From the NCBI RefSeq assembly GCF_000015805.1, contig NC_009073.1, positions 300,001 to 332,000 of the forward strand: a stretch of 32,000 nt of DNA, given 5' to 3'. Both the position numbers and the translations under genes were made by a program. Positions 6,577 through 26,318 of this stretch are shown in pieces. Numbering within the stretch: the first letter of the stretch is position 1; each line of letters starts with the position of its first letter. This stretch comes from Pyrobaculum calidifontis JCM 11548 (GTDB lineage Archaea; Thermoproteota; Thermoprotei; Thermoproteales; Thermoproteaceae). The notes beneath the pieces are model-generated. The model worked only from the letters and a program-made list of their open reading frames with translations. It ran no database searches and was not told where the DNA came from.

Positions 6577-7706
6577 ACATCTGCGTCAAGTGCAGGGGGA
6601 GGAAGCTCCTCTGCGGCTTGCCGAAGTGTCCAATTGAGCCGAGGGCAAGGGCTTTCCACCTGGCGCTGAGGCGCATTTCTGGGCGCGAGGTCTTTGGCTC
6701 TACGCCGCCCTCTGTCATCGTTGGCGAGTTTGGGTGGCCCAGCGTGCGCGTCTACCTTGGGGAGCCTCCCGAGGTCTTTGGAGAAGAGGCAAGGCGCTAC
6801 GACGACCCCCGCCTCTTGTGGGGGCTCTCGCTTGAGGAGATCTCTGCACTACGGAGCTACATGGCCTTTGGGGTTAAGACTGCGAGGACGCCTTGGGAGT
6901 TGGGCGAGCTGGCGTTTGTCTATGTCTCTTCGAGGCCTGTGGACGTGGAGATGAGGCTGGAGAAGCCGCCTGTGCCGTCGCTTAAGTTTGACCTTAGGGA
7001 GAAGCCGCTGGGCCCCAGAGCCCCGCTGGAGAGCGCGAGGGTTGTGGAAAATCCGTCGCCGCCGCGCCCGCTCGAGTCGTTGATAAACGACGACGTGTCT
7101 GCCCACGAGGCGGTGGTCGAGCTCTACTCACGCGGCGTTGACTTGTACATAATTCAGAGGGCCTTTTCCCTCGGCCTACTGGGGGCTAGGCACAGGAGAC
7201 GCCTAGTCCCATCTCGCTGGGGGATAACTGCGGTGGACGTGGCTGTGGGCAACTGGCTCGCCGAAGCCGTGAGACACTTCGGCGAGGTGCCGAGCCCTCT
7301 GTACGGCTACGGCGAATATTTGGACAATAGGTACCTCGTGGTAGTTGTGCCGGGCCCCCTCCGCTTTGTATACCTCGAGAGGTGGCAACAAGGCGACAGA
7401 GCGGCGGAGGTGTTAGTGAAAGAGGACCCGAGGGGCGTGAGGTCTACAATGGACGGCGGCTTTGAGGCGGCGAGAGTGGCGGTTTTGGAGAAGCTATACG
7501 CCATGAGGAGGAGGGGGTCCGTGGGCATTGTGAGGTGGATCGGCGAGGGGTACTACGTCTCTGTGGGAAACTGGCAGATTAGGGAGACTGTGCGGAGAAT
7601 TCAGCTGAGGCCGCTAGACGAAGAGTATAAGGCATACGTGGAGAGGGTCGGCGCAGACCCTCTGAAGCTACTCGGCACATCCAAGCCGCTTACAGACTTC
7701 ATTTAA
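6573..7706 (+). CDS. nreA: archaeal Nre-family DNA repair protein (NreA-like)
   Basis: N-terminal Cys cluster CVKCRGRKLLCGLPKCP typical of the Nre N-domain. Length of about 377 aa. The extreme C-terminus SKPLTDFI resembles a PCNA-interacting (PIP-like) tail. GTGA overlap with the upstream gene. Confidence 0.7.
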   Translation: MNICVKCRGRKLLCGLPKCPIEPRARAFHLALRRISGREVFGSTPPSVIVGEFGWPSVRVYLGEPPEVFGEEARRYDDPRLLWGLSLEEISALRSYMAFGVKTARTPWELGELAFVYVSSRPVDVEMRLEKPPVPSLKFDLREKPLGPRAPLESARVVENPSPPRPLESLINDDVSAHEAVVELYSRGVDLYIIQRAFSLGLLGARHRRRLVPSRWGITAVDVAVGNWLAEAVRHFGEVPSPLYGYGEYLDNRYLVVVVPGPLRFVYLERWQQGDRAAEVLVKEDPRGVRSTMDGGFEAARVAVLEKLYAMRRRGSVGIVRWIGEGYYVSVGNWQIRETVRRIQLRPLDEEYKAYVERVGADPLKLLGTSKPLTDFI

Positions 7707-8001
7707 TGTACAGCAGGCCCTCTGCCGTAGTGCCTATTGTGAGCAAGCCCTCAGTCTTTTCCACTGTCATTATTCTCCGCTTCTCCACGGCTACGCCGCA
7801 CGAAAAGTAGAGGCGGTCGTCGAGGTCCCACACCTTGACTTTTCCGTATGCGATAACTTCGCTTCCGGGGTTTTCCAGCGCTATTTTGACTGCGGTACAA
7901 ACAGACGGCGTCGAAAAATTATCAAACACGGTGAACAGTACAGCGAGGGTAGCCACGGCTAAGAGGAGTGTGGCAATTAAGCCCAGATATACATCAATCA
8001 T
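7699..8001 (-). CDS. cluster gene Q: small protein with a single N-terminal hydrophobic helix (pilin-like topology)
   Basis: MIDVYLGLIATLLLAVATLAVLF is followed by a beta-rich domain. ATGA overlap with gene P. Last gene of the cluster. Confidence 0.5.
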   Translation of the reverse strand: MIDVYLGLIATLLLAVATLAVLFTVFDNFSTPSVCTAVKIALENPGSEVIAYGKVKVWDLDDRLYFSCGVAVEKRRIMTVEKTEGLLTIGTTAEGLLYIK

Positions 8002-8264
8002 GGCTTTAGTCTACAGCTCATGCCTAACACACTGAAGGCGATGCCGGGGGGCGCCGCTATTGTGCCGCTTGTGGCACATGTCACAAGGCTAGTAACTCTG
8101 TACACGGCGGTAGGATCTCCCCGCTCGGCGTAGGCGTAGGCCTCGGGCCAGTAGAGGAAAATGGCTGAGAGGTCCGTCTTGTAGAACTTCACGGGTTTTA
8201 TCCACGACAGAGTGGCAACCGCTAGGGCAAATACGACTAGAATGAAGATCGTGTCGGCTCTCAT
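7998..8264 (-). CDS. cluster gene P: small N-terminally anchored protein
   Basis: MRADTIFILVVFALAVATLSW. TGATATG junction with gene O. Confidence 0.5.
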   Translation of the reverse strand: MRADTIFILVVFALAVATLSWIKPVKFYKTDLSAIFLYWPEAYAYAERGDPTAVYRVTSLVTCATSGTIAAPPGIAFSVLGMSCRLKP

Positions 8265-8265
8265 A

Positions 8266-8778
8266 TCAACACTTTACTAAGACGAGTTTGACAACCATGG
8301 GGATAGTGGCTAATAAGAGCTGTTGTACATATACCTCCGTGGTAAAGCGAGTGCCTTCGCGGCATATAGCGGCGAAGTGCCGCACTTCTACAACCTCTTT
8401 TACTTCAACTGTGGGAAGTACGTAAGAGCAGTAAGTGACGTGGACTGTGGCGTTGTTATGCGTGTAGGTCTTATTCAACAGCGCTGTGGGATATTCACAT
8501 TGGCCTACGGCGAGTATATATACTGGGAGATGCGGCGATTCGGAGATGTTTCTCCTCAGAACCCACTTGCCGTCTTCAAAGATGTAATATGCCTTAAACG
8601 TCTGGAGGGTGAGCGGCCGCGGCGACGACGCGACCTTTTCTGCCGCAATAGACTCTGCCACTGTCCTAGTGTAGGGGTCTGCGTACTGCATCGCCAGCAA
8701 CACCGCGGCGACCACGGCCGCGGTGGCGGCGGTAGACGCCGCAACTAGTATGAGGTACCTCAGCGTGAGCACGGCCAC
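8266..8778 (-). CDS. cluster gene O: N-terminally anchored protein, 170 aa
   Basis: GTG start. The N-terminal hydrophobic stretch is LILVAASTAATAAVVAAVLLAM. It overlaps the end of gene N by 19 nt. The start is uncertain. Confidence 0.5.
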   Translation of the reverse strand: MAVLTLRYLILVAASTAATAAVVAAVLLAMQYADPYTRTVAESIAAEKVASSPRPLTLQTFKAYYIFEDGKWVLRRNISESPHLPVYILAVGQCEYPTALLNKTYTHNNATVHVTYCSYVLPTVEVKEVVEVRHFAAICREGTRFTTEVYVQQLLLATIPMVVKLVLVKC

Positions 8779-11699
8779 GCCTCTACCGTTGAGGTCTCCG
8801 TCTGTGGAAGATCAGCCCATGTCTTTGAGAGCAACGCCGCGCGGGGCCTGGGGATTTGCGCTTCGCCGTTGGGGTAGACGAAGGCCCTCCAGTCGACTAT
8901 TGGCAAAACTAGCACGGGGTCCCACGGCGCAATCTTTGAGGCATTTACGACGGCACATGAGCCGGCGACCGCCGCTTTTTGTACCCATGTGCCATCTCTG
9001 AAGAGGTAGAAGGCGAAGCCCACGACGCCAGTGCCCCCGCTTACTTTGACTAAGCCGCGTTCTGGATCCGCCGCCTCAAAAATGGGCAACACTTGGACCT
9101 CTTTGACTCTTGCCTTTATCCAGATCTCCACTTCTCCCCAGAAGTCCCCCGCTACTGACAGCTGGGCCGCCCCTTGCGCAACGTCGGCGTATGAGCGGCC
9201 GGACACCGTCGTCGTGACGCATCTAAAGGCGAATCTCCTACCGCCTTCGCCAGCTCCAGGTAGCCCGTGGAAGTAGGGCGAGCCGCCCAGGTACAGCAAC
9301 GCGGTGGTGTTTAGCGGGACTTCTGCGTTTGCAGTATACACCGGGGGCGCGCGGCTGGTCGAGCGCAGTTCCAACGATACGTCGTTGGTTACAATGAATG
9401 CGAAGTGGTACCGCTTCCCCGTTTCGGCCTCTTCTATTGTTACTAGCACGGGCCCTGTGTAGTTGCCTGGCGTTGTGTATATAGAGTTCACGTTGATTTG
9501 AGCGCTTTCGCACGGCGCCAGCGGCTTATACGGAAGCCACCAGCCAGGCCCCACATATACCCCGTCGAGGGGGACCCACGTCTTTGACACGGTGGCAAGT
9601 GGGGCGTTGCATATGGGCTCGTGAGCTATTCCGGAGGCGGTTCTCTGGAGGATTTGCCCCCTCTCGACGTATATACGTACCGTAACTGTACGCGGCTCGC
9701 CTATGTATGTTATCAGCAGGGAATACCCAGCGCCAGGCAGTGCCACATCTGCCACGGGGCTTGGAGTGGGGCCCCACAGCGTTGGCTTTATGTCGACGCA
9801 TATCGGCGAGGTGCACGCCGTAGTTGGCACTAGTGACACAAGCCACGGCGAAGTCTCATTTGACAACATGCCTGCGAGGCCGAGGGGTAGTGCGTCTGTC
9901 CACCCGGCAGGGAGCTCCCAGTTGGACACGCCCTCGAAGAGGTAGTTGTAGAATTGGCCGTAGTAGGGGCTTGAGGTGTAGTAGAACAGCTTTGCGTTGT
10001 CTCTCGTGGTGTTCCTGTACTCTCCGAGGGAGGTGGCCAAGCTCACGAGGGAGACCCGTGCACCACGTATGACCAATTCGCTTGGCACGTCGAAGTCGCC
10101 CGTGGCTGGGTTAAATGCCCACGTCCTAAGCCGGTATACGTGGTCGTAGAAGAGCGCGTAATCTCCATAGAGCATGGACAAGAGGTCTGTGCCGCGCCCA
10201 TTTAGGAAGGAGTAGGGAATTAACCAGTCTACAAGCTCCAGCCACCTCATGGGCCACCCCCTGCCTGGCGGCCCCACTCTGGCGTAGCTTACCCACACCC
10301 CATTGACCTTGGTGAAGACGGGCTGTCTATAGACGCATGTGAAGATCTGCTGGGGCCACTGGGCACAGGGATCTGGGGGCGAATACCACGCCGTCTTAAT
10401 TGCACGCGTGTTTTCGTCTACTGCGATTTGAAGCTCGGCCCATTTAACTCCATGTCCAGTACTCAGCGGTGGCGTAGAGTATGCAAGTTTCTTGTTCTTG
10501 CTCACCTCCTCGTAGTCTATCAGCGCCCCGTCTGTGCCAGCCGCCCTCAAAAATGTTCCAAGCGCAGAGTTGATCCAAACGCGGCGCGCGGCCATGTCTA
10601 ACTCCCAGAGGACGGCAACTCTGAAGCCTACGGCCGAGCCAAGGGGCAACTCTATAGAGATGCCGCGCGTAAGCGCGGGCCGCAACGCTGATGGGGCAAA
10701 GGCTATGTACGGTCTTAGGTTAAAGCTTGTTTTAAATGCCGCAGAGTACATAGTACTGTTCCAAACCCAGTGGGTTCCCACCCAGGTGGAATTGCCAACG
10801 CTGTTTATTAAAAAACAGAAGGGCGGACTGCAGTCGGTTGGCTTACCAAAAACGGCGCGGGAAATATACAGCGGAATTTCGCGCGGCGGCGCCAGTTCGA
10901 CAGAGCCCCACAGCTCCGGCTCAGCTGTCACCGAGATTGAGATGTCGTACAAAAAGCTCCCAGACGATGGAAATGGAGCATTGCGGTATGTCCACGGGTT
11001 CGGTATTTTTGCCTCAACGCCGCCCCATTTAACTACGTCGCCAGCTTTAAAGCCGTTGATCTCCTCGGCGTGCCACGAGCTAGGGGCGCTTACGCTATAG
11101 GTGTTCTGCTCGTCAAAAGATATAAAACATAGGGAGCCGCCGCAAATCCAAAGGTCCTTTACAACATAGTCGCAGTACCAAGGCACGCGATATTGAATAG
11201 GAAGAGAGACCTTGATAGACCTGTAATCAAAGAACTGCACCTGGCTCCTCGAAGTCTCAAACTTTATTGTGTCGCTCACTCTATTCGGCGTCTTAACCAC
11301 TTTACAAAAATATAGGGTTAAGCCGCTCCAATCCACCCTGTAACGCTCTAAAACCCAATCTTGGCCTGGCGCAAAGTAGTAGAGGTTTAACACGTAGACA
11401 AGGTCTCTATCCCACCTCCCCTCCCAAGCAGTTGAGAAGACTCTAACAGTTGGCCAAGCGCGGTTACGCAAGTCTAGAAATTCCACATCCCACACACTAG
11501 TAGTTGTAGCTCCGTACGGATATTCAACACTTACGAGGTCCCCGTATGCAGGGGCAATGGTGTTAAATTTAAAACTGATGTGTACAGTGTCCGTCGTCTT
11601 GTATGTAAAATTGCCCACATATGTTATAGTTATAGCCGCATAGAGTGGCGACGCTAGAGTGCCCAACGTGATTACCAGGGTGAGGAAAAGCCACAGCAT
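8760..11699 (-). CDS. cluster gene N: 979-aa secreted, Trp/Tyr-rich, sequon-rich protein of unknown function
   Basis: This is the longest ORF in the window. Signal-peptide-like N-terminus MLWLFLTLVITLGTLASPLYA. At least 8 N-x-S/T sequons (NFT, NST x2, NTT x2, NET, NYT, NAS). No TM segment after the signal. No motif I can recognise. Confidence 0.85.
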   Translation of the reverse strand: MLWLFLTLVITLGTLASPLYAAITITYVGNFTYKTTDTVHISFKFNTIAPAYGDLVSVEYPYGATTTSVWDVEFLDLRNRAWPTVRVFSTAWEGRWDRDLVYVLNLYYFAPGQDWVLERYRVDWSGLTLYFCKVVKTPNRVSDTIKFETSRSQVQFFDYRSIKVSLPIQYRVPWYCDYVVKDLWICGGSLCFISFDEQNTYSVSAPSSWHAEEINGFKAGDVVKWGGVEAKIPNPWTYRNAPFPSSGSFLYDISISVTAEPELWGSVELAPPREIPLYISRAVFGKPTDCSPPFCFLINSVGNSTWVGTHWVWNSTMYSAAFKTSFNLRPYIAFAPSALRPALTRGISIELPLGSAVGFRVAVLWELDMAARRVWINSALGTFLRAAGTDGALIDYEEVSKNKKLAYSTPPLSTGHGVKWAELQIAVDENTRAIKTAWYSPPDPCAQWPQQIFTCVYRQPVFTKVNGVWVSYARVGPPGRGWPMRWLELVDWLIPYSFLNGRGTDLLSMLYGDYALFYDHVYRLRTWAFNPATGDFDVPSELVIRGARVSLVSLATSLGEYRNTTRDNAKLFYYTSSPYYGQFYNYLFEGVSNWELPAGWTDALPLGLAGMLSNETSPWLVSLVPTTACTSPICVDIKPTLWGPTPSPVADVALPGAGYSLLITYIGEPRTVTVRIYVERGQILQRTASGIAHEPICNAPLATVSKTWVPLDGVYVGPGWWLPYKPLAPCESAQINVNSIYTTPGNYTGPVLVTIEEAETGKRYHFAFIVTNDVSLELRSTSRAPPVYTANAEVPLNTTALLYLGGSPYFHGLPGAGEGGRRFAFRCVTTTVSGRSYADVAQGAAQLSVAGDFWGEVEIWIKARVKEVQVLPIFEAADPERGLVKVSGGTGVVGFAFYLFRDGTWVQKAAVAGSCAVVNASKIAPWDPVLVLPIVDWRAFVYPNGEAQIPRPRAALLSKTWADLPQTETSTVEAWPCSR

Positions 11700-11720
11700 G
11701 TCCTACTACGGAGGAGGGGA

Positions 11721-11733
11721 GGATTAAGTTTAG
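11721..11733 (-). promoter_or_regulatory. stop-embedded A/T motif CTAAACTTAATCC, 30 nt before the ATG of gene N
   Basis: The TAA stop of gene M (11730-11732) is part of the motif. It is one of five related copies (see findings). Confidence 0.4.
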
Positions 11734-12395
11734 CAAGAAAAAAGCCTTTGAATTACCTCGGGACAGGCCAGCGGGAGGCGGAGCGGATAGTCCACTATGT
11801 ATATCAGCGGAGTGGATTGGGGGGCCACTATGTAGAGCTTTGTGACATTCCCATAGTACACCATAGCCCATTGCGCCTTCGCTGCTGGGTATGCAGATAA
11901 TCGTCCCAAGAGGGGGGCGCCGTAGTTGATGGAAAGGAGGTACTGGGTCAAATTCTCGACAGGGACGGCGACGACGTCTAGCCATGGTAGAAAGTCAAGG
12001 GAGTGTATCAGCTCTACTTCGTAGAGAGCCGCAGGCTCGCCCCACGGGGTTGTAACATTGCGGCACGACGCTAGGTTGACGTAGAGCTGGTACCGCACAT
12101 TTCTGCCCTCGCTGGACAGCTTGTAGCCCACTGGCACAGCCACAGCCAGAGGCTTACCTAGGCCAGGGGGGCACACAACCACGTCTTTGACTAAGACGGC
12201 GTTTGGAGCGGCGTTTTGAAAGGCGCTGTAGTTTGCATAGGCGTTGAAGGCGTCGAGCATATTCAACGCTGTTTTGGCCGCGTAGAGCTGGTCTGCCAGA
12301 TTTACTGTGGCTAAAGTCGGCGTATGTAGCGCGGCGTATGTGGCCACGAATAAGACCACGGCAAGAGCCACTAGGCCAAAGGCGGTGGACCACAT
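11730..12395 (-). CDS. cluster gene M: N-terminally anchored protein (about 221 aa)
   Basis: ATG 12395 gives MWSTAFGLVALAVVLFVATYAAL. TGATATG junction with gene L. The longer track ORF (to 12446) would overlap L. Confidence 0.6.
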   Translation of the reverse strand: MWSTAFGLVALAVVLFVATYAALHTPTLATVNLADQLYAAKTALNMLDAFNAYANYSAFQNAAPNAVLVKDVVVCPPGLGKPLAVAVPVGYKLSSEGRNVRYQLYVNLASCRNVTTPWGEPAALYEVELIHSLDFLPWLDVVAVPVENLTQYLLSINYGAPLLGRLSAYPAAKAQWAMVYYGNVTKLYIVAPQSTPLIYIVDYPLRLPLACPEVIQRLFSC

Positions 12396-12396
12396 A

Positions 12397-12747
12397 TCAC
12401 CAGAGCCTCTTCCCCATCTTCGGCTCGCTGGGGCTGCAACTGACAAATGCCACGCCGCCGATGACCCACACGTAAAGCGGAGTACAAGCCAGGGTCTCGT
12501 TTACGCGGAAGGGCGCGCCGCTTGTGTGGTAGGCCCAGGCGAACTTTTCTACTTCCCTCTCTCCTAGCAAAAGAGCGGCGTAGTAGTCGCGTTGCACCAC
12601 GGTGTAAGGGCCCACGAGCTTGTAGGCACAGTCTCCGCAGTGGATCGGCGGCGAAAAGCCCTCGCGCGCGGGGTAGAGCGACGCGATCGTAGCCGCAACT
12701 AGGGCCATTAGGCCTGCAAATATTACGAGATCTCTAACGGCGATCAT
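12397..12747 (-). CDS. cluster gene L: small N-terminally anchored protein (about 116 aa)
   Basis: ATG 12747 gives MIAVRDLVIFAGLMALVAATIASLY. ATGA overlap with the stop of gene K. The track ORF extension to 12906 is an R/H-rich shadow. Confidence 0.55.
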   Translation of the reverse strand: MIAVRDLVIFAGLMALVAATIASLYPAREGFSPPIHCGDCAYKLVGPYTVVQRDYYAALLLGEREVEKFAWAYHTSGAPFRVNETLACTPLYVWVIGGVAFVSCSPSEPKMGKRLW

Positions 12748-13223
12748 GGGCAACTGTATTGAACGACAAGCCAGCGGCCTCTTGAGGCTATACCCACAGG
12801 CGAGCAGCCAGCGACAGTGGCGTTGGAAAACGGCGGGGGACACCACAGGCCCGTGTAGGGATCGTCGCCTATGCGCACGCTTTTCACCCCGGGCGCAAGC
12901 CGGCATCTATAGCCGCCGGGGTATATTTCGAATACTGCGACGAGCACACCTCCTATGCCTAAAGCCCTCCTAAGCTCTTCCACGTCTCCCTCGTATTCCA
13001 CAGCCACTAGTCCAAAGCCAGACACAGGAAGGCTGGAGGAAATAAGCGGCGAGCTCGTAGGCGTTGCATACACATACACCCTCCTAGTCGGCGCATCGCC
13101 TGCCGGCGCAAGCGGCGACTCCGCTATTTTTACCTCAATAAATTGGGATGCCACAGCCACTGCGTAAAGGAACAGTGAGACCAGGGCCGCTATAAACGCC
13201 GTTGCGGCCACTACGTCCTCCAT
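12744..13223 (-). CDS. cluster gene K: small N-terminally anchored protein (about 159 aa)
   Basis: ATG 13223 gives MEDVVAATAFIAALVSLFLYAVAVASQF. It lies 28 nt after the stop of gene J, with no A/T box between them. Confidence 0.55.
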   Translation of the reverse strand: MEDVVAATAFIAALVSLFLYAVAVASQFIEVKIAESPLAPAGDAPTRRVYVYATPTSSPLISSSLPVSGFGLVAVEYEGDVEELRRALGIGGVLVAVFEIYPGGYRCRLAPGVKSVRIGDDPYTGLWCPPPFSNATVAGCSPVGIASRGRWLVVQYSCP

Positions 13224-13251
13224 AGCCCCACGCCTTCGACCTTTCCTACCC

Positions 13252-14208
13252 TCATTCTGACGACCTGCGGCGGTAGAGTATATAGGCAACGATTCCGCCG
13301 GCCACAACCGCTGCTATTAAAAGGGGTATGGGGAGCTGTGCGCTCTCTTCAGTCCTAACCTCGGCTGACAGTTGGGCGAGCTCTGCGTGGAGAGCAGCAT
13401 TTGTCCTATTGAGCTCGGCCAAAAGAGCCCTTGCCTTCTCCAGCTCTTTTTGCGCCTCTTCAAGCCTCTTTTTCAACTCCTCTGCCTCTTGGCGCGCGGA
13501 GGCAAGTTGAGAGGTGAGTGCGGCTATCTGCGACTCCCTCAGCCGCAGAGCCTCCTCTAGCTCTCTCCTTTGGCGTTGTAGCTCCGCCACTTTCTCCCTA
13601 AGCTGTGCCACAAGGGCAACCGCGTTAGACGAGTTTCTCGTTAGCTCATCTACCACTTTCTGCAACTGCCGCAACTCGGCTTGGAGCTGTTGATAGCTCT
13701 GGATGAGGGAGATGTTAGTCTGGGGTACTCTCAAAACCGTCTTGCTCTCTATGTCTAAATACCACCCGGCGGGCACATGACCTGAAAAAACTCCCACTGG
13801 CGTATACGTGGTTAAGTTGGCGTCTGCAAATTCTATGCTGGAGGCATAAGCAGAAAACCTAAGTGGTAGCCACTTAAGCCACAGCCATGTCGTACCATTT
13901 GGCGAACAGTAGAGGTCCCCACTCCAAACCTCCGCAAAGTCGTTTGACGAGTTGGTCGCCTCCTGTACGTCGATTGCTATATATCTACAAGCTTCAGAGA
14001 GGTAGTAGAGGACTGCCCTCTCCTCTTGAGGAGAGCCTAAGAACGATAGGCCAATTTGCCTAAGATATACCACTTTGCCGCCCACTTGAGCTGTGAAATG
14101 TGTTGAATTTACTGGGTAGGCGTTTATCAGCAAGGCGTGTGGCGGATACCAACTAACCAAGCCTGCCATTGTGAATACGCCCAGTAGCAGGAATAGGAGG
14201 TATTTCAT
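13252..14208 (-). CDS. cluster gene J: signal peptide, beta-rich sequon-rich ectodomain, ~120-aa coiled coil and C-terminal TM anchor
   Basis: N-terminus MKYLLFLLLGVFTMAGLVSW. Seven N-x-S/T sequons. Heptad-like segment LQAELRQLQKVVDELTRN...LEEAQKELEKARALLAELNRTNAALHAELAQLSAEV. C-terminus LPIPLLIAAVVAGGIVAYILYRRRSSE. Confidence 0.8.
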   Translation of the reverse strand: MKYLLFLLLGVFTMAGLVSWYPPHALLINAYPVNSTHFTAQVGGKVVYLRQIGLSFLGSPQEERAVLYYLSEACRYIAIDVQEATNSSNDFAEVWSGDLYCSPNGTTWLWLKWLPLRFSAYASSIEFADANLTTYTPVGVFSGHVPAGWYLDIESKTVLRVPQTNISLIQSYQQLQAELRQLQKVVDELTRNSSNAVALVAQLREKVAELQRQRRELEEALRLRESQIAALTSQLASARQEAEELKKRLEEAQKELEKARALLAELNRTNAALHAELAQLSAEVRTEESAQLPIPLLIAAVVAGGIVAYILYRRRSSE

Positions 14209-14230
14209 GAAAAAGGGCCCGTGTTTAAGG

Positions 14231-14243
14231 GGAAAAAGTTTAG
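14231..14243 (-). promoter_or_regulatory. stop-embedded A/T motif CTAAACTTTTTCC, 31 nt before the ATG of gene J
   Basis: This 13-mer is identical to the one at 14708-14720. The TAA stop of the pilin gene (14240-14242) lies inside it. It contains a T5 run. Confidence 0.45.
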
Positions 14244-14686
14244 GAAATTCCTATTGTGACAACTCCCTTGGCTATTTGCACAGCTTTACCGCTAGTGTCT
14301 ACAGCGTATATCACATAGGTATATTGTTGACCAGCGGTAAGCGACGCTTGAAATCTACACGTCGCCGATTGGCCGGCCACTAGGTTTAACTGATTTGGCT
14401 GCGCGTTGGTAGTAGTCGACGTTATGCAGCTCCCCGTGGTGAGTAGTTGTAGCGCGCCGCCGGAGGGGCCGTACCTGAGGTATATCCCCGTTAGTTTTCC
14501 ATTTAGCACCTCTATTGTTACATCGAAGCCTCCCCTGTCTGCAGTTACTATGGCGTTAGCCCTTAGAGACTCTGCGGCAGATTTGCCAATGCCTTGGAAT
14601 GTTAGTACTCCTATTACTCCCACTATTATGAACGCGGCCGCTATTAGTAGCGACTCCACTGTGGTTAACCCTCTTAGTTTTGGCAT
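14240..14686 (-). CDS. cluster gene I: archaeal type IV pilin-like protein with class III signal peptide
   Basis: MPKLRG|LTTVESLLIAAAFIIVGVIGVLTF has a short basic leader ending in Gly, Glu at +5, and then a ~20-aa hydrophobic helix. It is followed by a Thr/Gly/Ser-rich beta domain. Confidence 0.8.
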   Translation of the reverse strand: MPKLRGLTTVESLLIAAAFIIVGVIGVLTFQGIGKSAAESLRANAIVTADRGGFDVTIEVLNGKLTGIYLRYGPSGGALQLLTTGSCITSTTTNAQPNQLNLVAGQSATCRFQASLTAGQQYTYVIYAVDTSGKAVQIAKGVVTIGIS

Positions 14687-14707
14687 AGGGACGCGTTGTT
14701 CTATTGC

Positions 14708-14720
14708 GGAAAAAGTTTAG
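14708..14720 (-). promoter_or_regulatory. stop-embedded A/T motif CTAAACTTTTTCC, 30 nt before the ATG of the pilin gene
   Basis: The TAA stop of gene H (14717-14719) is inside the motif. The geometry fits a TATA box for a leaderless pilin mRNA. The T5 run could also act as a terminator. Confidence 0.45.
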
Positions 14721-15913
14721 AGAATTTGTAGGAGGAGTTGCTCCACTAAGAGGCCAGCTGTGCCGCCGATGAGCGCCGCCTGATGTAGCCCCATTGGGAT
14801 TAGAAAAACTGCGACATATGACGCCGTGACGAGGGACAGTCCTTTGGATAGTACTTCTCGAACTTCGTCGTAGGGCGGGGGAGTGAAGAAGGGGTTCACT
14901 GCGGAGGAGTCCTGAAGCGCGTGGACGGACGTAGCCACGGAGAATGCCAGCACCAGCACCGCGGCGGTGAACAGTAGGAAAAAGGCAGCGGCTTGTTTAG
15001 CCATCTTCCTCACCGCGCTGGCTTCTATGTCCACGATGGATTGTATATACTCGACAGCCTTTATTGCAAAGACGCCGCCAGCCTCGGTGATGGCCCGATA
15101 CATGCTCTTTGCCAGCACGAAGTAGCGCGAGGGGATATAGTAGCCGTAGGCCACCTTGGCCGCGGTTTTAAACTTAGACGTGAGACGCGCCAAGATTACG
15201 TCCGGCGGAGCGCCCTCCTTCAGCATCGCAGCCGTTGCCCTCAGCATCGGCGGAACCTCTCTACGTATTTGAAACCACCACAGCCTATCCCCGGCCTTAA
15301 GCCAAGCAAGGGCAACGACGCCAAATGTCGCAAGGGCTAGCGGAGGAGAGGCCAAAAGGCCTAGGGGCACCGCCGCCAAAATGCCGAGGGGGATAGACCA
15401 GCTGTAGACGCGTAGGGGGTTTAGGTCTTGTGGAGATGTCAAAACCACTGCGGCTCCCGCGGCCAGCGCCGTGGCCGCAATTGTGGCAAGTATCAGCGCC
15501 GGGTCCACGGAGAATACGCCAATAGACCACAGGAAGAGGAAGAAGAGCGGGAGGAGGAAGAGGGCGCCGAGGGCGCTAGTGATTGACTCGAAAAGCCTAA
15601 CCCGCGCCTCCACCTTAGCCACGGCCAAGGCCTTCACAGACTCTAGAAACGTGGAGACTACTACGCCTCTGTCGACGCCTGCCTCCTCTTGCGCCAGGGC
15701 AAAGCCGTATAGCCTGACAACCTCGCTCTTGTCCTCTAGGAACTGGGTAGAGGGGGTTGGCATTAGGGACGCCACGAAGAGGCGGCGCGCCTCCTCCTCG
15801 TTAAGCTCCACGGCGTTAAGCGAGGTGTATTTCAAAGCCTCATTTCCAGACGACACGCTGAGGTATGTGGCAAATATGGGTGCCACAACCATGTAGAAAT
15901 CCTCTCTGTCCAT
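14717..15913 (-). CDS. cluster gene H: polytopic membrane platform protein (FlaJ/TadB-TadC/T2SS-F-like)
   Basis: 398 aa with a duplicated architecture. A soluble helical segment followed by TM helices occurs twice (about aa 1-110 plus TMs, then about aa 215-300 plus TMs). This is typical of type IV filament platform proteins. Confidence 0.75.
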   Translation of the reverse strand: MDREDFYMVVAPIFATYLSVSSGNEALKYTSLNAVELNEEEARRLFVASLMPTPSTQFLEDKSEVVRLYGFALAQEEAGVDRGVVVSTFLESVKALAVAKVEARVRLFESITSALGALFLLPLFFLFLWSIGVFSVDPALILATIAATALAAGAAVVLTSPQDLNPLRVYSWSIPLGILAAVPLGLLASPPLALATFGVVALAWLKAGDRLWWFQIRREVPPMLRATAAMLKEGAPPDVILARLTSKFKTAAKVAYGYYIPSRYFVLAKSMYRAITEAGGVFAIKAVEYIQSIVDIEASAVRKMAKQAAAFFLLFTAAVLVLAFSVATSVHALQDSSAVNPFFTPPPYDEVREVLSKGLSLVTASYVAVFLIPMGLHQAALIGGTAGLLVEQLLLQIL

Positions 15914-15933
15914 GGAAAACGCGGCGAGGGGGA

Positions 15934-15946
15934 GGAAAAAACTTAG
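15934..15946 (-). promoter_or_regulatory. stop-embedded A/T motif CTAAGTTTTTTCC, 29 nt before the ATG of gene H
   Basis: The TAA stop of gene G (15943-15945) is inside the motif. It contains a T6 run. Confidence 0.4.
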
Positions 15947-16281
15947 ACTAAGTTTGAAAGCACCTCGCGTATGTGGGCCAGCTTACCCGCCTTCTCCACC
16001 GCCTTGGGCAACTCCCTCACCGCCTCCTCCACAGAGGCTCCTGAGGACACGCGGCGGAGAATGTAGTCAACGACCATCTCTAGGTACTTCCTCAAGTCAA
16101 CCGCCTTGGCGGCTATTCGCCAGTCCTCCTCCTCTAGCCATATACCGCTTTTAGCGAGCTTAGCCACGGCCTTGTAAAACCGCCTTTCGTCAACGCCGAG
16201 CTCTCCAGCGAGCTCACAAATCCAACGCGCCGTGCTCGCAGTAAAGCCGCTCTTAACCGCCTTCTTCTCAACGCGGCACAT
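15943..16281 (-). CDS. cluster gene G: small soluble helical protein, unknown function
   Basis: ATG 16281 gives MCRVEKKAVKSGFTASTARWICELAGELGVDERRFYKAVAKLAKSG, possibly HTH-like. The track ORF starts at 16302. It overlaps the end of gene F. Confidence 0.5.
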   Translation of the reverse strand: MCRVEKKAVKSGFTASTARWICELAGELGVDERRFYKAVAKLAKSGIWLEEEDWRIAAKAVDLRKYLEMVVDYILRRVSSGASVEEAVRELPKAVEKAGKLAHIREVLSNLV

Positions 16282-16507
16282 TGGCCAACAGCAACAGGGC
16301 AAGTTTTACATAGGGGTCGTCTCTCTCCGAGAGGGTCTTTAAGACGGCCTCCCTTGGCACAGCCTCTAGTATCCTCTTGGCAACATCCTGAGGCATCTCT
16401 GAGAGAGCTCTCACGAGGCACTCCACCCAGCTCTGCCCTCTCTCCTCCACCCTCCCCCCGTCTCCTCCGCCGTCTAGTAGCTTCTCCAGACTAGCCCTCT
16501 TCAGCAT
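16268..16507 (-). CDS. cluster gene F: 79-aa soluble protein, unknown function
   Basis: ORF with an ATG 30 nt downstream of the stop-embedded motif at 16529-16541. No recognisable motif. Confidence 0.45.
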   Translation of the reverse strand: MLKRASLEKLLDGGGDGGRVEERGQSWVECLVRALSEMPQDVAKRILEAVPREAVLKTLSERDDPYVKLALLLLANVPR

Positions 16508-16528
16508 GTTCGTCCCTTTGAGCTGAGG

Positions 16529-16541
16529 AGATAAGGTTTAG
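16529..16541 (-). promoter_or_regulatory. stop-embedded A/T motif CTAAACCTTATCT, 30 nt before the ATG of gene F
   Basis: The TAA stop of the secretion ATPase gene (16538-16540) is inside the motif. This is the weakest of the five copies. Confidence 0.3.
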
Positions 16542-18067
16542 GTGTATCCAAACCTCCTAGCCTCCTCGGCCACAGCGGCTTTAAAGTCCAGCCTCTTTCC
16601 CCAGAGCATTTCCACGATAGTCCTCCTAGCCTCAAGCGGGTCTTCGAACTCCGCCGCCTTTAAGACGGCCTCTACTCTCAGGGCGAGCTCTTGCTTCAAC
16701 TCCACGTCGTACATCTCCCGGACATATGCGGCAAGGCGCGGCGTCAGTTGCGAAACGTCCACAACCTTCACCTCTCTGCCCTCGGCCGCCAAGGCCTTCG
16801 CCTCTTTTACATACCTGGCCCCTGCCACGGCCGATAACTGAATGACGAGAATTGAGTCGAGGGCCTCCGGCGGGGCCTCGGCCTCCACGATCCTAGTCAC
16901 TGCGTCTCTCACAGTCTCTGCGTGCATGGTGGTCAAGGCGCCGTGGCCAGTGAGCTTGTAGCTCGCCAAGGTCCTCAGCTCGGCTGGCGTCCTCGCCTCG
17001 GCCAACGCCACCACCGTGTGAACAGTGCCGTATCTAAGCGCCTGGTCTAGCGCGGCCCACAGCTTCTCCTCATTGGGGACGGAGAGGTGTAGGAGTTGGC
17101 CCTCCAGCGGAGCCCAGATCTCCCTCGCGCCGCGCTCCACTGCCACCACTTGCACCCACGGGGGAACGAGGTAGAGGAGCTGGTTCAACTGCGTCGTCTT
17201 GCCAGAGCCCATCCCGCCGCTGAAAATCACGCCGCCCCTAGTCTCAAGCACAAGGGAGGCCAAGGCGAGTAGCTCAAGGCCCTCAACGCCGTAGGTGACC
17301 CCGGCGCTGGACTCCTCGAACCTGGGCCTCGTCAAATATGGCTTTAACAACGCCTTGGAGGGCTTCGGTACGCTTGACATTTTTCTAATATTGACGTTGT
17401 ACTCCAAGAGGTCAGCCGCAATCCTGGCCTTATACACTTGGTCCTCCCGGGTGAGCAACGGCTTGTCCATGGTAAGAGAGGGAACCAGCTGCTTAACTAC
17501 GACGTACATCAGCGGCTCTGGAATTACAATGTTAGTGGGCAACCTCAGCTCATTTCTCACAGCCACTACGCGCCTGTAGCGGCCCAGCTCCAACATTTGA
17601 AACTTGATGTAGTCCAGCTGTTCGCGCAGAGTCTTAGGCACATATGTGAACTTAGCCGCAGGCGCCACTGACTGCGGAATTACGATCTCAGTTAGAAAGG
17701 GGTCGCGCATCATTGCCTCCAGCGCCCCATACCCGGCGTACTCTCTTGCACCGCTCCACCTGTCCAAGAGGTAATGAACGACCTCTCTGTAGTCCTTGTA
17801 AAGCGCCCAGATCGCCCTATCTCCCAGGCCCTCTGCTATTGACTTCATCACGCGGGGGTACTCCCTCTCGTCCGGCGGCACGGCGCCGCGGAACATCACG
17901 AGCAACAAGGCCGTCTGCAACTCGTCGGGTAACTCTGGATCTACCACAACATACATGAGGTCGTCGGTGATACATATGTCGGTCCTCACTCCTCTGTCCA
18001 CGATAACGCCCTCCTTCTTTAGAACACATCGAGATGTCAAGCCCCTATCGGCATGCGCGTAGATCAT
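16538..18067 (-). CDS. cluster gene E: type II/IV secretion-family ATPase (FlaI/TadA/VirB11-like)
   Basis: 509 aa. Walker A motif SGGMGSGKTTQLNQL. Divergent Walker B region VVALAEARTPAE. His-box LTGHGALTTMHA. ATGA overlap with the upstream ParA-like gene. Confidence 0.9.
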   Translation of the reverse strand: MIYAHADRGLTSRCVLKKEGVIVDRGVRTDICITDDLMYVVVDPELPDELQTALLLVMFRGAVPPDEREYPRVMKSIAEGLGDRAIWALYKDYREVVHYLLDRWSGAREYAGYGALEAMMRDPFLTEIVIPQSVAPAAKFTYVPKTLREQLDYIKFQMLELGRYRRVVAVRNELRLPTNIVIPEPLMYVVVKQLVPSLTMDKPLLTREDQVYKARIAADLLEYNVNIRKMSSVPKPSKALLKPYLTRPRFEESSAGVTYGVEGLELLALASLVLETRGGVIFSGGMGSGKTTQLNQLLYLVPPWVQVVAVERGAREIWAPLEGQLLHLSVPNEEKLWAALDQALRYGTVHTVVALAEARTPAELRTLASYKLTGHGALTTMHAETVRDAVTRIVEAEAPPEALDSILVIQLSAVAGARYVKEAKALAAEGREVKVVDVSQLTPRLAAYVREMYDVELKQELALRVEAVLKAAEFEDPLEARRTIVEMLWGKRLDFKAAVAEEARRFGYT

Positions 18068-18768
18068 ACCGCCTTAAGCCTCATCAATATCGTGTCCACA
18101 GCCTTTCTATTCTCCCTGTCGCTTAACACGGCGTCAGCCACAGACTCGCCAGAGAACTCTTGAATCTTAACCCGCTTAATCACCACTGGGGCAATTTTCT
18201 TCGCCACCCTAACCTCCTCTTTCTCAACCATGTTTACCACCACCAAGCTCGAATAGGCCATGTACCTGCGGTACTGCTCCGCCTTTACGTCAGAAATACG
18301 GGATATAAGCCTTCTATCCGACATAAAGACTGTATAGACGCCGGAGCTCTGCAGTGCGGCTAACACCTCCGTCCGGAGGGCGGCTGTGGTATCTATCACC
18401 ACCGTGTCCACCGGGAGGCGTAGCTTTTGTACAAGCTTAGGCATAACCCTTGCCCACTCCAACAGCGCCTGTTCAAAGTCCTCTACTACGTCTACGCCGA
18501 ATTTCTGGTAGGCCTCAAAAGCCTCAAAGCCGGGGATTAGGTAGAGCATGGGGTTAATGCGGTGGACGTAGGGCATTGACCCGTTTATGTATGGGGCAAG
18601 CCACCCCGGCTTCCTAGGGGCTCTGAAGAGCTGCGACAAATCCGCCTTCTCCCAGTCCATGTCCACCAAGAGCGTGTACCCCTTTGCCACAGAGAGCACG
18701 GCGGCCAAGGTAGTCTTGCCCACGCCGCCGTCGAGCGAAGTTATGACTACTACTTTTACAGGCCTCAT
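18064..18768 (-). CDS. cluster gene D: ParA/MinD (SIMIBI) family ATPase, TadZ/CpaE-like position
   Basis: Deviant Walker A motif VVVITSLDGGVGKTTLAAVLS followed by LLVDMDWE. 234 aa. ATGA overlaps on both sides. Confidence 0.85.
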   Translation of the reverse strand: MRPVKVVVITSLDGGVGKTTLAAVLSVAKGYTLLVDMDWEKADLSQLFRAPRKPGWLAPYINGSMPYVHRINPMLYLIPGFEAFEAYQKFGVDVVEDFEQALLEWARVMPKLVQKLRLPVDTVVIDTTAALRTEVLAALQSSGVYTVFMSDRRLISRISDVKAEQYRRYMAYSSLVVVNMVEKEEVRVAKKIAPVVIKRVKIQEFSGESVADAVLSDRENRKAVDTILMRLKAV

Positions 18769-19064
18769 ATGCGCTCCCTCAGCTTCCTATATACAACAGC
18801 CGCCGCGGCCTCCTTTATGCTCTCGCTGTCTGCCACAGGCCCCACCTCCCTCTTGATCTCCTCAATTACGTACGAGGCGGCCTTTCGATCAGATAGCTCT
18901 TCTAGGCCTAGGAGAGAGGGGCGGAGCTTCACTGCCCTTCCCTTGATGTTGAGCAAGGCGATGCGCGCCGCTATGCAGAGGTCTCTATTGGCCTTGTAAA
19001 ATTCAGAGTTGACACAAGCCCTCTCCAACTCTTTCAACATGGCGAGGGTAGCCTCATCAAGCAT
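18765..19064 (-). CDS. cluster gene C: about 99-aa soluble helical protein, unknown function
   Basis: ATG 19064 gives MLDEATLAMLKELERACV. It overlaps the end of gene B by 8 nt and is ATGA-coupled to gene D. The track start at 19094 is a TTG. Confidence 0.5.
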   Translation of the reverse strand: MLDEATLAMLKELERACVNSEFYKANRDLCIAARIALLNIKGRAVKLRPSLLGLEELSDRKAASYVIEEIKREVGPVADSESIKEAAAAVVYRKLRERI

Positions 19065-19647
19065 AACACGCCCTAAGTCTCTCGGGGTCTTCAACCACGC
19101 GCCTCACCACTTCCTCAAACGAGGCGTCAAACTCCAGTCTCTCCCTCAACACCTTCACCAATTCCTCGAGCACAGGCCGAGACTGTGACAGACGCCGGGC
19201 GCCTCCGCCACGCGGCGCCGCCACTCGCCTAATTACCTCAAATGGGTCGTCACAGACAAGCGGATATTCGCCACACAGCCCCGCTAGACGCAGAAGCTCT
19301 GGGTTAAGCTGAAAGTAGGGAATTCTCTCCACCCTGGTGATAAACTCCACCAAGCTCTTTACCGCAGTACGAACGTCGCTCCACCTATACTTCTTGACAA
19401 ATGTCGCCACTGGACAGCTGAGGGGCCCCGGCCTCACCCTGGAGTAAACTACATCAAGGCCCTCCACAGAGGCGACGATGTATATGACAATGGGCTTCTC
19501 CGGCCTCTTGCAGTACGGCTCCACGTCCTCCGGCCTCCACATGTAGGCCTCCTTAAGCATGTAGACGCCGCCGACCGGCGCCTCTCCCCACCGCAGAGCC
19601 CACCCCTCCCCAAGCGCCTTGGCCACCTCCTCCACCCTCGCGATCAT
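19057..19647 (-). CDS. cluster gene B: about 196-aa soluble protein, unknown function
   Basis: ATG 19647 gives MIARVEEVAKALGEGW and forms an ATGA overlap with the stop of gene A. The longer track ORF (to 19713) would overlap A by 70 nt. Confidence 0.55.
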   Translation of the reverse strand: MIARVEEVAKALGEGWALRWGEAPVGGVYMLKEAYMWRPEDVEPYCKRPEKPIVIYIVASVEGLDVVYSRVRPGPLSCPVATFVKKYRWSDVRTAVKSLVEFITRVERIPYFQLNPELLRLAGLCGEYPLVCDDPFEVIRRVAAPRGGGARRLSQSRPVLEELVKVLRERLEFDASFEEVVRRVVEDPERLRACYA

Positions 19648-20342
19648 GCCGACACGCCGAATTGTACAAACCCACGGGGGGCTTGAACAGTTGTACAACC
19701 CGACGAGTTGCACACAGCACGCCTCCCCATCATGAAGTCTATGTGCGGCATGCGCCCAGTGTCAAGCCAGTACAGCCACTCTGCCAAGTGGCCATTCCTC
19801 CTATCCCGCCACCTCGTCCACGCCACCCACGCGTAGCCCCTCTCCCAAGCCAACTCCCTCAACCAGCGAGGGAAAGCCTCTCTAAACACCTCCCAAGGCC
19901 GCGACTCTGGCACATCAGAAACCCACTTAAACAACGCGGAAGCCCTGTTCCGCCACACATACCTCCTATCCCCCGACGTAAGCGACGTCAAAAGATAACA
20001 CGGAGACACTTGCACCCTCACGTCAAGCACAACGTCGTTTTTTACATACGGCCACGCCGCCCTGGCCCCAGGGTGGACATAGCCGCCCTCGGCAAAGAGG
20101 AGCCACTCATCCCTAAACCTCCCCCCGATTCGAAGCCCCCTCACTACCAAGTGGGCAACCCGAGGATTAGAGAAGATATAATCCACTAATTCGTCCACGC
20201 TATTGACGACGTGGCTAAGCCTCTCCAAAAGAACTTCTACGAAGTCTCTCCCAAGTAACTCGACCCAATCCCTGGGCTCCCGGTGTAGAAATATGCAGGG
20301 GTCAACTCTCGCCTTCACAAGATATAATAAGCTTAAAACCAC
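19644..20342 (-). CDS. cluster gene A: 232-aa Trp/Arg-rich soluble protein, unknown function
   Basis: First ORF of the cluster. GTG start, which is uncertain. The antisense ORF 19662-20189 is P/R/H-rich and is judged to be a shadow. Confidence 0.5.
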   Translation of the reverse strand: MVLSLLYLVKARVDPCIFLHREPRDWVELLGRDFVEVLLERLSHVVNSVDELVDYIFSNPRVAHLVVRGLRIGGRFRDEWLLFAEGGYVHPGARAAWPYVKNDVVLDVRVQVSPCYLLTSLTSGDRRYVWRNRASALFKWVSDVPESRPWEVFREAFPRWLRELAWERGYAWVAWTRWRDRRNGHLAEWLYWLDTGRMPHIDFMMGRRAVCNSSGCTTVQAPRGFVQFGVSA

Positions 20343-23810: not shown

Positions 23811-23905
23811 CCCACCCCCTTATAAGTATGAATAGCGTCCCACAAACGTCTGCCGTCATCTGACTCTAGGCACAAACCTTAAAAATAGCTGTAAAGAGGC
23901 GGCGG

Positions 23906-24565: not shown

Positions 24566-24650
24566 CCGCCGACCTGGTCCGTTGGACGGATCACAAGTTC
24601 TCTGCACTTATCCGTTGCCACAAAGCTACACGGCGGACTTCAACTACACC

Positions 24651-25385: not shown

Positions 25386-25412
25386 AAAAGCCCCACAAGC
25401 ATACCTATAAAA

Positions 25413-25460
25413 ATGATGAAACCCCGATAGCCAGAAAATGAAGAAAATCGCATGGACTGA
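25413..25460 (+). ncRNA. candidate C/D box sRNA (2'-O-methylation guide)
   Basis: AUGAUGA (C box, 25413-19), 12 nt, CAGA (D', 25432-35), 3 nt, UGAAGA (C', 25439-44), 12 nt, CUGA (D, 25457-60). The 12-nt guide spacing is the canonical archaeal geometry. ACATAAAAG box about 25 nt upstream. It lies in the TauE/Sec61beta intergenic region. Confidence 0.55.
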
Positions 25461-25490
25461 AAAAATAAAAACCCACCCCCAGTAAGCCAC

Positions 25491-26145: not shown

Positions 26146-26156
26146 AAAATTTAAAA
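26146..26156 (+). promoter_or_regulatory. TATA box of tRNA-Leu
   Basis: AAAATTTAAAA is centred about 27 nt upstream of tRNA position 1. Confidence 0.55.
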
Positions 26157-26177
26157 CCCCGTGTGTATTCACTATCG

Positions 26178-26263: not shown

Positions 26264-26318
26264 GCCACATTAACTCTGATCTTCTCAGAGACCCCAGACA
26301 GACTTAGCGTATATTATC

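Follow-up and report, generated by a model that had tools for sequence, protein, structure and literature searches.

A 17-gene cluster of Pyrobaculum calidifontis is the catalogued archaeal type IV pilus subsystem 4G

Background

A stretch of 32,000 nucleotides from the genome of Pyrobaculum calidifontis JCM 11548 (contig NC_009073.1, positions 300,001 to 332,000; the whole stretch is called the window here) contains, at 7699-20342, 17 consecutive minus-strand open reading frames (ORFs), labelled g1 at the upstream end to g17. The question they raise is what kind of machine they encode, and whether it has been described before. A first-pass annotation of the window, made from the letters alone, had read them as a type IV filament-like machine, specific to its lineage and rich in accessory genes without recognizable motifs, had implied that the machine was novel, and had left open whether surveys of archaeal type IV pili (T4P) already included it. 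We recovered all 17 ORFs and found support for the machine but not for its novelty: the locus is the archaeal type IV pilus 'subclade' or 'subsystem' 4G, already catalogued, and this genome is one of its published exemplars, all 17 genes being listed as arCOG05605-05619, subclade 4G, by Makarova, Koonin and Albers in 2016 (PMC4858521); a 2026 preprint describes the system once more (bioRxiv 10.64898/2026.04.22.720090).

Results

The locus in published surveys

The 2016 survey describes subclade 4G as a T4P system of the Pyrobaculum-Thermoproteus group, with a core made up of an ATPase (arCOG05609) and a TadC (arCOG05611), both diverged, a PilA major pilin (arCOG05612) and a FleN/MinD protein (arCOG05608). 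To this core it adds a pair of small alpha-helical proteins inside the cell, many small minor pilins whose cysteines are conserved, and two large proteins. Of these, the 'S-layer-like' one has a C-terminal anchor, and the other, which is secreted, is called a 'possible adhesin or minor pilin' (PMC4858521). The supplements of the survey list GI 126458941-126458954, with lengths of 100, 88, 979, 159, 318, 148, 398, 112 and 234 aa, as arCOG05619 through arCOG05608, and both the lengths and their order match the present cluster, which overall spans GI 126458941-957. The three proteins at its head, g1-g3 (GI 126458957, -56 and -55; arCOG05605-05607), are recorded there as cytoplasmic and 'specific for Pyrobaculum group', and the ATPase GI 126458953 is placed in the clade-4 tree beside the 4G ATPases of Thermoproteus and Vulcanisaeta (PMC4858521).

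The preprint, based on MacSyFinder2, characterizes subsystem 4G by an obligatory MinD-like ATPase together with several pilins and accessory proteins of the membrane; it specifies a single PilA-type pilin, several minor pilins rich in Cys, and an ATPase and a TadC that are both divergent, and it provides structure predictions; it regards the Ig-rich, adhesin-like arCOG05616 as a 4G hallmark and arCOG05609 as 4G-specific (bioRxiv 10.64898/2026.04.22.720090).

The following 4G markers are present in the cluster: the arCOG05609 ATPase (g5), the arCOG05608 MinD/FleN protein (g4, the 234-aa entry), arCOG05616 (g14, 979 aa), the Cys-rich pilin-like proteins g11-g13 and g15-g17, and the small helical g6 and g7. 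Two of the components that mark a member of the type IV filament (TFF) superfamily are also there, namely a hexameric-type secretion ATPase (g5) and a class III-signal subunit (g9). Five of the cluster proteins are exact matches to P. calidifontis JCM 11548 entries (ABO07756, -60, -61, -65 and -66), g5 being ABO07765. Outside Pyrobaculum, the 2011 genome paper of T. tenax flagged TTX_0962-0973 as a putative T4P operon with a candidate prepilin peptidase, TTX_0979, nearby; judged by its gene count and the consecutive GI numbers, this operon is the probable ortholog of the cluster. Searching the literature by locus tags, accessions and arCOG numbers, we found no experimental study.

Gene order and conservation

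The ORF ends given by the first-pass annotation were correct, and several of its starts lay too far upstream. Ortholog alignments place the starts at 20318 (GTG) for g1, 19647 for g2, 19064 for g3, 16281 for g7, 13223 for g11, 12747 for g12, 12395 for g13 and 8772 for g15 (Table 1). Junction lengths computed with these starts preserve the two kinds of junction that had been noticed earlier, overlaps or 1-nucleotide gaps on the one hand and spacers of 28-31 nucleotides on the other, the spacers standing before g6, g8, g9, g10, g11 and g14. From g1 to g5 all junctions are overlaps (g1/g2 -4, ATGA; g2/g3 -8; g3/g4 -4; g4/g5 -4). The following ones are g5/g6 +30, g6/g7 -14, g7/g8 +29, g8/g9 +30, g9/g10 +31 and g10/g11 +28, and the last part of the cluster reads g11/g12 -4, g12/g13 +1 (TGAT-ATG), g13/g14 +30, g14/g15 -13, g15/g16 +1 and g16/g17 -4.

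One genome per species was scanned, yielding seven loci with a close relative of the ATPase, in which orthologs were assigned by tblastn and ORF mapping. Four Pyrobaculum loci have g1 to g17 in identical order, save for one truncated contig and for g10, of which no homolog was detected in one locus (L004), and a fifth (L005) has g1-g9 up to the end of its contig, with g6 not detected. Two Thermoproteus loci are rearranged, with the order g4, g5, g7, g8, g9, g16, g17, g11, g12, (g13), g14; by the same mapping g1-g3, g6, g10 and g15 were not detectable in them. Amino-acid identity across the Pyrobaculum loci ranges from 30 to 80%, and the small proteins, at only 30-70%, nevertheless keep their length, their N-terminal hydrophobic helix and their even cysteine counts. 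Because order, length, helix and cysteine counts are conserved across species, the accessory ORFs are genuine genes, found in Pyrobaculum and for the most part in Thermoproteus as well, and the earlier concern that they might be spurious can be dropped. The cluster is not a chance arrangement.

Some loci depart locally from this layout. The coiled-coil protein g10 is apparently missing at 13830-13921 of L004; in another locus (L002), g10 and g11 are separated by an additional 1.2 kb or so (between 14989 and 16233), and its g12 ortholog is 373 aa long, compared to 116 aa here.

Table 1. Genes of the cluster and intercistronic motifs, in window coordinates
Feature	Position	Strand	Length (aa)	arCOG	Description
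g1	19644..20318	-	224	arCOG05605	Cytoplasmic orphan, Pyrobaculum-specific; first gene of the g1-g5 unit
g2	19057..19647	-	196	arCOG05606	Cytoplasmic orphan; ATGA-coupled to g1
g3	18765..19064	-	99	arCOG05607	Helical cytoplasmic orphan; overlaps g2 by 8 nt and g4 by ATGA
g4	18064..18768	-		arCOG05608	MinD/FleN/ParA-type P-loop protein; ATGA-coupled to g5
g5	16538..18067	-		arCOG05609	Divergent PilB/FlaI-superfamily secretion ATPase; subsystem 4G marker
g6	16268..16507	-	79		Helical cytoplasmic protein; own motif-bearing spacer upstream
g7	15943..16281	-	112	arCOG05610	Helical cytoplasmic protein; possible helix-turn-helix
g8	14717..15913	-	398	arCOG05611	Polytopic membrane protein, putative platform ('diverged TadC')
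g9	14240..14686	-	148	arCOG05612	Major pilin candidate, PilA family; 2 conserved Cys; motif on both sides
g10	13252..14208	-	318	arCOG05613	Sec signal, Trp-rich ectodomain, coiled coil, C-terminal transmembrane anchor
g11	12744..13223	-	159	arCOG05614	Minor pilin-like; 4 conserved Cys; N-terminus MEDVV plus hydrophobic helix
g12	12397..12747	-	116		Minor pilin-like; 4 conserved Cys
g13	11730..12395	-	221		Minor pilin-like or secreted; N-terminus MWSTAF (Thermoproteus ortholog MRGQWSLAY)
g14	8760..11699	-	979	arCOG05616	Secreted all-beta multi-domain protein; 15 Cys; Sec-type N-terminus
g15	8266..8772	-	~168	arCOG05617	Minor pilin-like; 4 conserved Cys
g16	7998..8264	-	88	arCOG05618	Minor pilin-like; 2 conserved Cys
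g17	7699..8001	-	100	arCOG05619	Minor pilin-like; 2 conserved Cys; ends the cluster, facing the convergent Nre gene
Motif before g6	16529..16541	-			CTAAACCTTATCT; starts at the g5 stop, ATG 21 nt downstream
Motif before g8	15934..15946	-			CTAAGTTTTTTCC
Motif before g9	14708..14720	-			CTAAACTTTTTCC
Motif before g10	14231..14243	-			CTAAACTTTTTCC
Motif before g14	11721..11733	-			CTAAACTTAATCC; supports the 979-aa start

A secretion ATPase without Tad affinity

The g5 protein matches Pfam T2SSE with 41.5 bits (cutoff 24.9), and its Walker A motif (GxMGSGKT), catalytic E357, H382 of the His box and R-fingers are invariant across 16 homologs. The T2SSE match confirms the secretion ATPase in the earlier assignment of a FlaI/TadA type, while no specific affinity to TadA was seen. 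Against models of ComGA, VirB11, FlaI, TadA, PilT and BasE, g5 scores an equally poor 25-35 bits where the cutoffs are in the hundreds, and its 27.9 bits against the TadA-family model (cutoff 373) are no better than its scores against ComGA, VirB11 or FlaI; the structures of GspE2, FlaI and CpaF are remote matches only (E ~1e-6). Identity to homologs falls from 72-81% in Pyrobaculum to about 50-55% in Thermoproteus, about 40-47% in metagenomic lineages and about 29% in Vulcanisaeta. Published trees place g5 in archaeal clade 4G, whereas the CpaF-like archaeal ATPases (arCOG01819) form clade 1 (PMC4858521). The order of ParA-like protein, ATPase, platform and pilin, which the first-pass annotation had called a Tad-like core, is indeed present, but the 4G locus of Vulcanisaeta, unlike that of Pyrobaculum, reads platform-ATPase-MinD. 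Given the equally weak scores to all secretion-ATPase families, the position in clade 4G and not clade 1, and the different order in Vulcanisaeta, we reject a Tad affinity; the resemblance in order is that of TFF systems in general.

The putative platform and the cytoplasmic proteins

The g8 protein has about five to seven hydrophobic segments, arranged as two blocks that each combine a cytoplasmic region with a cluster of transmembrane segments. The 'duplicated architecture' noted earlier holds for this two-block topology only: an internal-repeat test detected no sequence similarity between the two halves. Relatives are few, with only 10 among 1.84 billion representative proteins in an exhaustive phmmer search. 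Neither g8 nor its most distant relatives had a Pfam match to T2SSF, no PDB profile matched, and hhalign comparison to two genuine T2SSF proteins, one archaeal and one bacterial, gave probabilities below 1%. The assignment of g8 to TadC is taken wholly from the literature (PMC4858521). In size and position g8 is as expected for a TFF platform protein; a recurring stretch of the form 'L..xL..G.(s/p)....', resembling the beginning of T2SSF domains, was seen by eye and is not counted as evidence.

The partner of the ATPase, g4, had been called a ParA/MinD ATPase. The family match holds but is weak: Pfam CbiA scores 27 bits, and minD_arch, at 30 bits, is far under its cutoff. Its Walker A motif reads S-L-D-G-G-V-G-K-T-T, with an aspartate where the signature lysine of MinD/ParA stands, and this D13 is invariant in eight orthologs from Pyrobaculum and Thermoproteus. 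The MinD-like protein beside the Vulcanisaeta 4G ATPase retains KGG.

Upstream of g4, homologs of g1 form only 18 clusters, all from Pyrobaculum or Thermoproteaceae. It gave no signal against Pfam, NCBIfam or PDB profiles, and its AF2 model, built from 17 sequences, has an unreliable pLDDT of 56. The g2 protein was likewise empty in Pfam, NCBIfam and PDB profile searches. Between the ATPase and the platform, g6 and g7 fit the 'small alpha-helical intracellular proteins' of the 2016 survey (PMC4858521). The g7 protein is conserved in Pyrobaculum and Thermoproteus, and its family yields convergent sub-threshold matches to helix-turn-helix (HTH) domains, with HTH_24 in four of eight members, NirdL-like_HTH in four of eight, and PaaX, as well as weak matches to MarR, Lrp and FliA, none of them significant singly. 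An alternative in which g7 is a split-off T2SSF cytoplasmic domain, raised by one ortholog with a T2SSF match at E = 0.022, was rejected on a non-significant hhalign result. An HTH in g7 is thus possible and has more convergent support than the T2SSF reading, still below threshold.

In a Vulcanisaeta distributa locus (L010, CP002100), a 696-aa FtsK/HerA-like DUF87 ATPase is encoded at 12473-14563, about 3 kb downstream of the 4G-type ATPase/MinD pair, and several small proteins with N-terminal helices are encoded upstream.

The candidate major pilin and the minor pilin-like proteins

The class III signal peptide that had been proposed for g9 was confirmed. Its N-terminus reads MPKLRG/LTTVESLLIAAAFIIVGV (MPKLRG/LTTVE), and the signal is kept in seven orthologs, as [KR]G/LTTVE in Pyrobaculum and KG/QAGGID in Thermoproteus. 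A weak FN3-like match falls in the C-terminal half; among solved structures no homolog was found.

The six minor pilin-like proteins of Pyrobaculum begin differently: the initiator methionine and at most five residues precede the hydrophobic helix, without a leader peptide, and in most species there is no in-frame upstream start that would supply one. The Thermoproteus orthologs of g11, g13 and g17 start with M-[KR]-G-Q/V and thus have a leader, and the Pyrobaculum methionine sits at the mature +1 position of these orthologs. By this alignment, the Pyrobaculum proteins appear to have lost the leader, and they may not need a prepilin peptidase. Because a cleavable class III leader is absent, their status as pilins rests on their topology and on the Thermoproteus orthologs.

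Two large proteins, one anchored and one secreted

The membrane-anchored g10, named an 'S-layer-like protein' in the 2016 survey (PMC4858521), has an ectodomain with sequons (glycosylatable) and a coiled coil of about 125 aa, which corresponds to a stalk of about 19 nm. The Pyrobaculum S-layer lies about 37 nm off the membrane.

The secreted g14 has 32 homologs, all from Pyrobaculum. The AF2 model, built from 30 sequences, has a mean pLDDT of 75.7 and is all-beta and multi-domain, and a Foldseek search of the PDB returned Ig-like or beta-sandwich arrays only (a fragment of the GhpA hook, complement MG domains, the SpaA shaft pilin and a haloarchaeal S-layer protein). A PilY1-like propeller or an enzyme is therefore not supported: the model consists of beta-sandwich arrays with generic matches and has no enzymatic domain, and PilY1 is not among the top 50 Foldseek matches. 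The RefSeq re-annotation of g14 is a 908-aa form (WP_193322811) without a signal peptide; the 979-aa start is favoured because a sequence motif lies 21 nucleotides upstream of its ATG and because it agrees with the N-termini of orthologs.

A stop-embedded motif between the genes

This motif recurs within the cluster. Five of the six spacers contain CTAAACTTTTTCC or a near variant (TAA-NN-TTTTTCC), embedded in the stop codon of the upstream gene. It starts at that stop codon, 20-23 nucleotides separate it from the next start codon, and its T-run is at about -26. We searched the window and four Pyrobaculum loci for the strict pattern TA[AG]-NN-TTTTT-YY and found 24 copies, all on the coding strand and all within the cluster, with none in about 46 kb of flanks and none on the antisense strand; the window also has two more degenerate copies. 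In other species the motif predicts the correct starts. A generic Pyrobaculum promoter was rejected as an explanation, since the flanks have no copy of the motif and, at this same distance, other genes of the window carry standard TTTAWA boxes. Sigma-70 and terminator scans were uninformative.

The position at about -26 is that of archaeal promoter boxes for leaderless genes, and leaderless transcription was first shown in P. aerophilum. With its T-run at this position, the motif probably serves as an internal promoter from which leaderless mRNAs start. The first gene, g1, has a canonical TATA-like box, TTTTAA, about 24 nucleotides upstream. From these signals and the junctions we infer a single translationally coupled unit, g1-g5, and separate initiation for each of g6-7, g8, g9, g10(-13) and g14-17, an arrangement by which the cell could produce an excess of the major pilin.

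Neighbouring genes and other features of the window

The cluster is flanked by unrelated housekeeping genes: on one side PEP synthase, MscS, TrkA, cystathionine synthase and the convergent Nre gene, on the other a divergent cobalamin adenosyltransferase followed by Usp, CBS and MFS genes. Further along, at 28795-30422 (+), there is a 378-aa ABC/OLD-type AAA_21/AAA_15 ATPase whose best PADLOC matches are to candidate defence ATPases (HEC-01A at E 4e-20, and also Old, AriA and GajA). An orphan 164-aa ORF starts within its last four nucleotides, and together the two genes may be a defence module. A Csa3/CasR-like wHTH forms the end of the gene that follows (30352-31389). A 665-aa ORF at 26319-28316 (-), matching no Pfam or PADLOC family, adjoins a tRNA-Leu(CAG) gene at 26178-26262 (+), and the ORF at 26129-26470 (+) that overlaps this tRNA is probably spurious. 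The region 23001-26000 has a strong positive AT skew of 0.30-0.33 and includes membrane-protein genes on the minus strand, for an MFS transporter (22608-23810) and for TauE (24651-25490); the simplest explanation of the skew is that hydrophobic proteins have T-rich coding strands.

Discussion

What the machine would do

A 4G type IV filament cluster that builds a pilus with a tip adhesin is the best explanation of the locus, and one we regard as probable. In such a pilus, g9 would first be cleaved by a PibD-type peptidase encoded elsewhere, and the g5 hexamer, acting on the diverged platform g8, would extract g9 from the membrane and polymerize it. By analogy with bacterial minor pilins and PilY1, g11-g13 and g15-g17 would probably assemble with g14 into a priming or tip complex, with g14 displayed as the adhesin. 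The stalk of g10 would probably make it an envelope-spanning accessory in the wide space below the S-layer, and g4, g1-g3 and g6-g7 would position or regulate the machine. Expression would come from the coupled g1-g5 unit and then from short units, each behind a stop-embedded A/T box about 26 nucleotides before its ATG.

Several observations weigh against this account. No sequence test made here ties the platform to the T2SSF/TadC family, the six small Pyrobaculum proteins have no cleavable class III leader, and no g10 homolog was detected in Pyrobaculum locus L004. The fold matches of g14 are generic, with TM-scores of at most 0.13 over the whole chain, and the T5 run of the motif could equally be an archaeal terminator of the upstream transcript. 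Cryo-electron microscopy (cryo-EM) of P. calidifontis has reported other filaments, bundling pili and a flagellar-like T4P with a KaiC-containing locus, and none from this locus. A prepilin peptidase is absent from the 32-kb window, as the first-pass annotation had said; a domain search found no Peptidase_A24 among any of its ORFs. Prepilin peptidases are commonly encoded away from the pilus locus, and their absence from the window does not exclude membership.

Alternative explanations

The main rival, which we think unlikely, is a type II secretion-like pseudopilus or surface-display machine, with a short g9 filament and the minor pilin-like proteins as a piston that would push or present g14 through the S-layer space of about 37 nm. 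It would account for one major and six minor pilin-like proteins in the same sub-operon as a large secreted protein, and it would explain why cryo-EM surveys of the strain saw no long filament built by this locus; an S-layer so far from the membrane makes a dedicated passage device plausible, and leaderless minor pilin-like proteins might stay membrane-anchored. Such a machine fits less well with g14 itself, which has its own Sec-type signal, no enzymatic domain, and a reading as pilus adhesin in both published surveys, and no secretin-like or other conduit component is recognizable. No test made here separates it from the pilus reading.

A motility organelle, in which g1-g3, g6-g7 and the MinD-like g4 would be analogous to FlaH, FlaX or FlaCDE, is very improbable. 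P. calidifontis and P. aerophilum are reported to be motile without an archaellum operon, the cluster has a rich cytoplasmic accessory set coupled to its ATPase, and MinD-type ATPases position archaella in haloarchaea. However, Pfam and NCBIfam searches of the 17 proteins and the window flanks found no FlaF, FlaG, FlaH, FlaX or FlaCDE domains, which upholds the first-pass view that this is not an archaellum. The 4G ATPases cluster apart from those of archaella, on which ground the preprint considers 4F, 4G and 4I 'likely unrelated to motility' (bioRxiv 10.64898/2026.04.22.720090), the flagellar-like filament of the strain comes from another locus with a KaiC gene, and an Ig-rich adhesin fits attachment better than swimming.

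That only the core (g4, g5, g8 and g9) is real and the small ORFs are annotation artefacts, or that the cluster is a decaying relic, is hardly credible: 10 of the 17 proteins lack a Pfam family (g6 and g7 having sub-threshold matches only) and several ORFs overlap or had mis-set starts, but the small ORFs are kept in position, length, N-terminal helix and cysteine count at 30-70% identity, the catalytic motifs of the ATPase are invariant, no cluster gene has a frameshift or internal stop, and the inter-gene signals are conserved.

Apart from these, a tentative case can be made for a distinct TFF machine, doubtful as it is, combining six peptidase-independent minor pilins, a K-less MinD partner, three genus-specific cytoplasmic proteins coupled to the ATPase and structural genes that each have their own stop-embedded promoter/terminator cassette, with a short pseudopilus displaying a hook-like g14 through the 37 nm S-layer. 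In a machine of this kind a dedicated factor, for example the HTH-like g7 or a lineage-specific TFB, may read the cassettes.

No known type IV filament systems are as diverse as those of the Thermoproteales, among which 4G ranks as the most complex. Recognizing the locus as catalogued 4G saves effort, and the interest that is left lies in what the putative machine makes. The intercistronic cassette offers a cheap handle on how stoichiometry is set in an archaeon with leaderless mRNAs.

Comparison with known systems

The likeness of g14 to the Aureispira hook protein GhpA is one of architecture: both g14 and the GhpA fragments are Ig-like beta-sandwich arrays, and 9flw_A ranks third in the Foldseek search. 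The match is nevertheless weak and generic (E 2e-3, TM ~0.1, 8% identity). Secretion of GhpA runs through a bacterial type IX system, not through a TFF machine. The preprint also compares the 4G adhesin to Aureispira hook proteins (bioRxiv 10.64898/2026.04.22.720090).

In the bacterial fimU-pilVWXY1E operon and the GspHIJK tip complexes of type II secretion, as in the present cluster, small pilin-like genes lie beside one gene whose product is about 1000 aa long. The bacterial and the Pyrobaculum proteins are related neither in sequence nor in fold, and the Pyrobaculum minor pilin-like proteins, unlike theirs, are without leaders.

The bacterial Tad/Flp pilus (tadZ-tadA-tadB-tadC) belongs to the same TFF superfamily and shares a ParA/MinD-like gene directly upstream of the ATPase gene, with platform and pilin-like genes downstream. 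It differs in having TadB and TadC where the cluster has one 398-aa platform, and an Flp pilin of about 50 aa where g9 has 148 aa and an Ig-like C-terminal half. No secretin domain (RcpA) or RcpCAB was found among the cluster proteins, and the gene order is not kept even within 4G.

Closer at hand, the characterized Pyrobaculum pili, namely the T4P of P. arsenaticum (subsystem 4E) and the flagellar-like T4P of P. calidifontis, share the genus, the TFF superfamily and disulfide-stabilized pilins with the cluster. They come from other loci and ATPase clades, their pilins are not detectably related to g9, and their components include neither the g1-g3 block nor a MinD gene nor the 979-aa protein.

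With 4G as published the cluster shares the genome and the proteins themselves, and there is no difference in kind. What we add, not found in the published 4G texts, is the stop-embedded motif, the leaderless minor pilin-like proteins, the lysine-to-aspartate change in g4, the corrected starts and the failure of g8 to match T2SSF; these additions are refinements of subsystem 4G, not a new kind of system.

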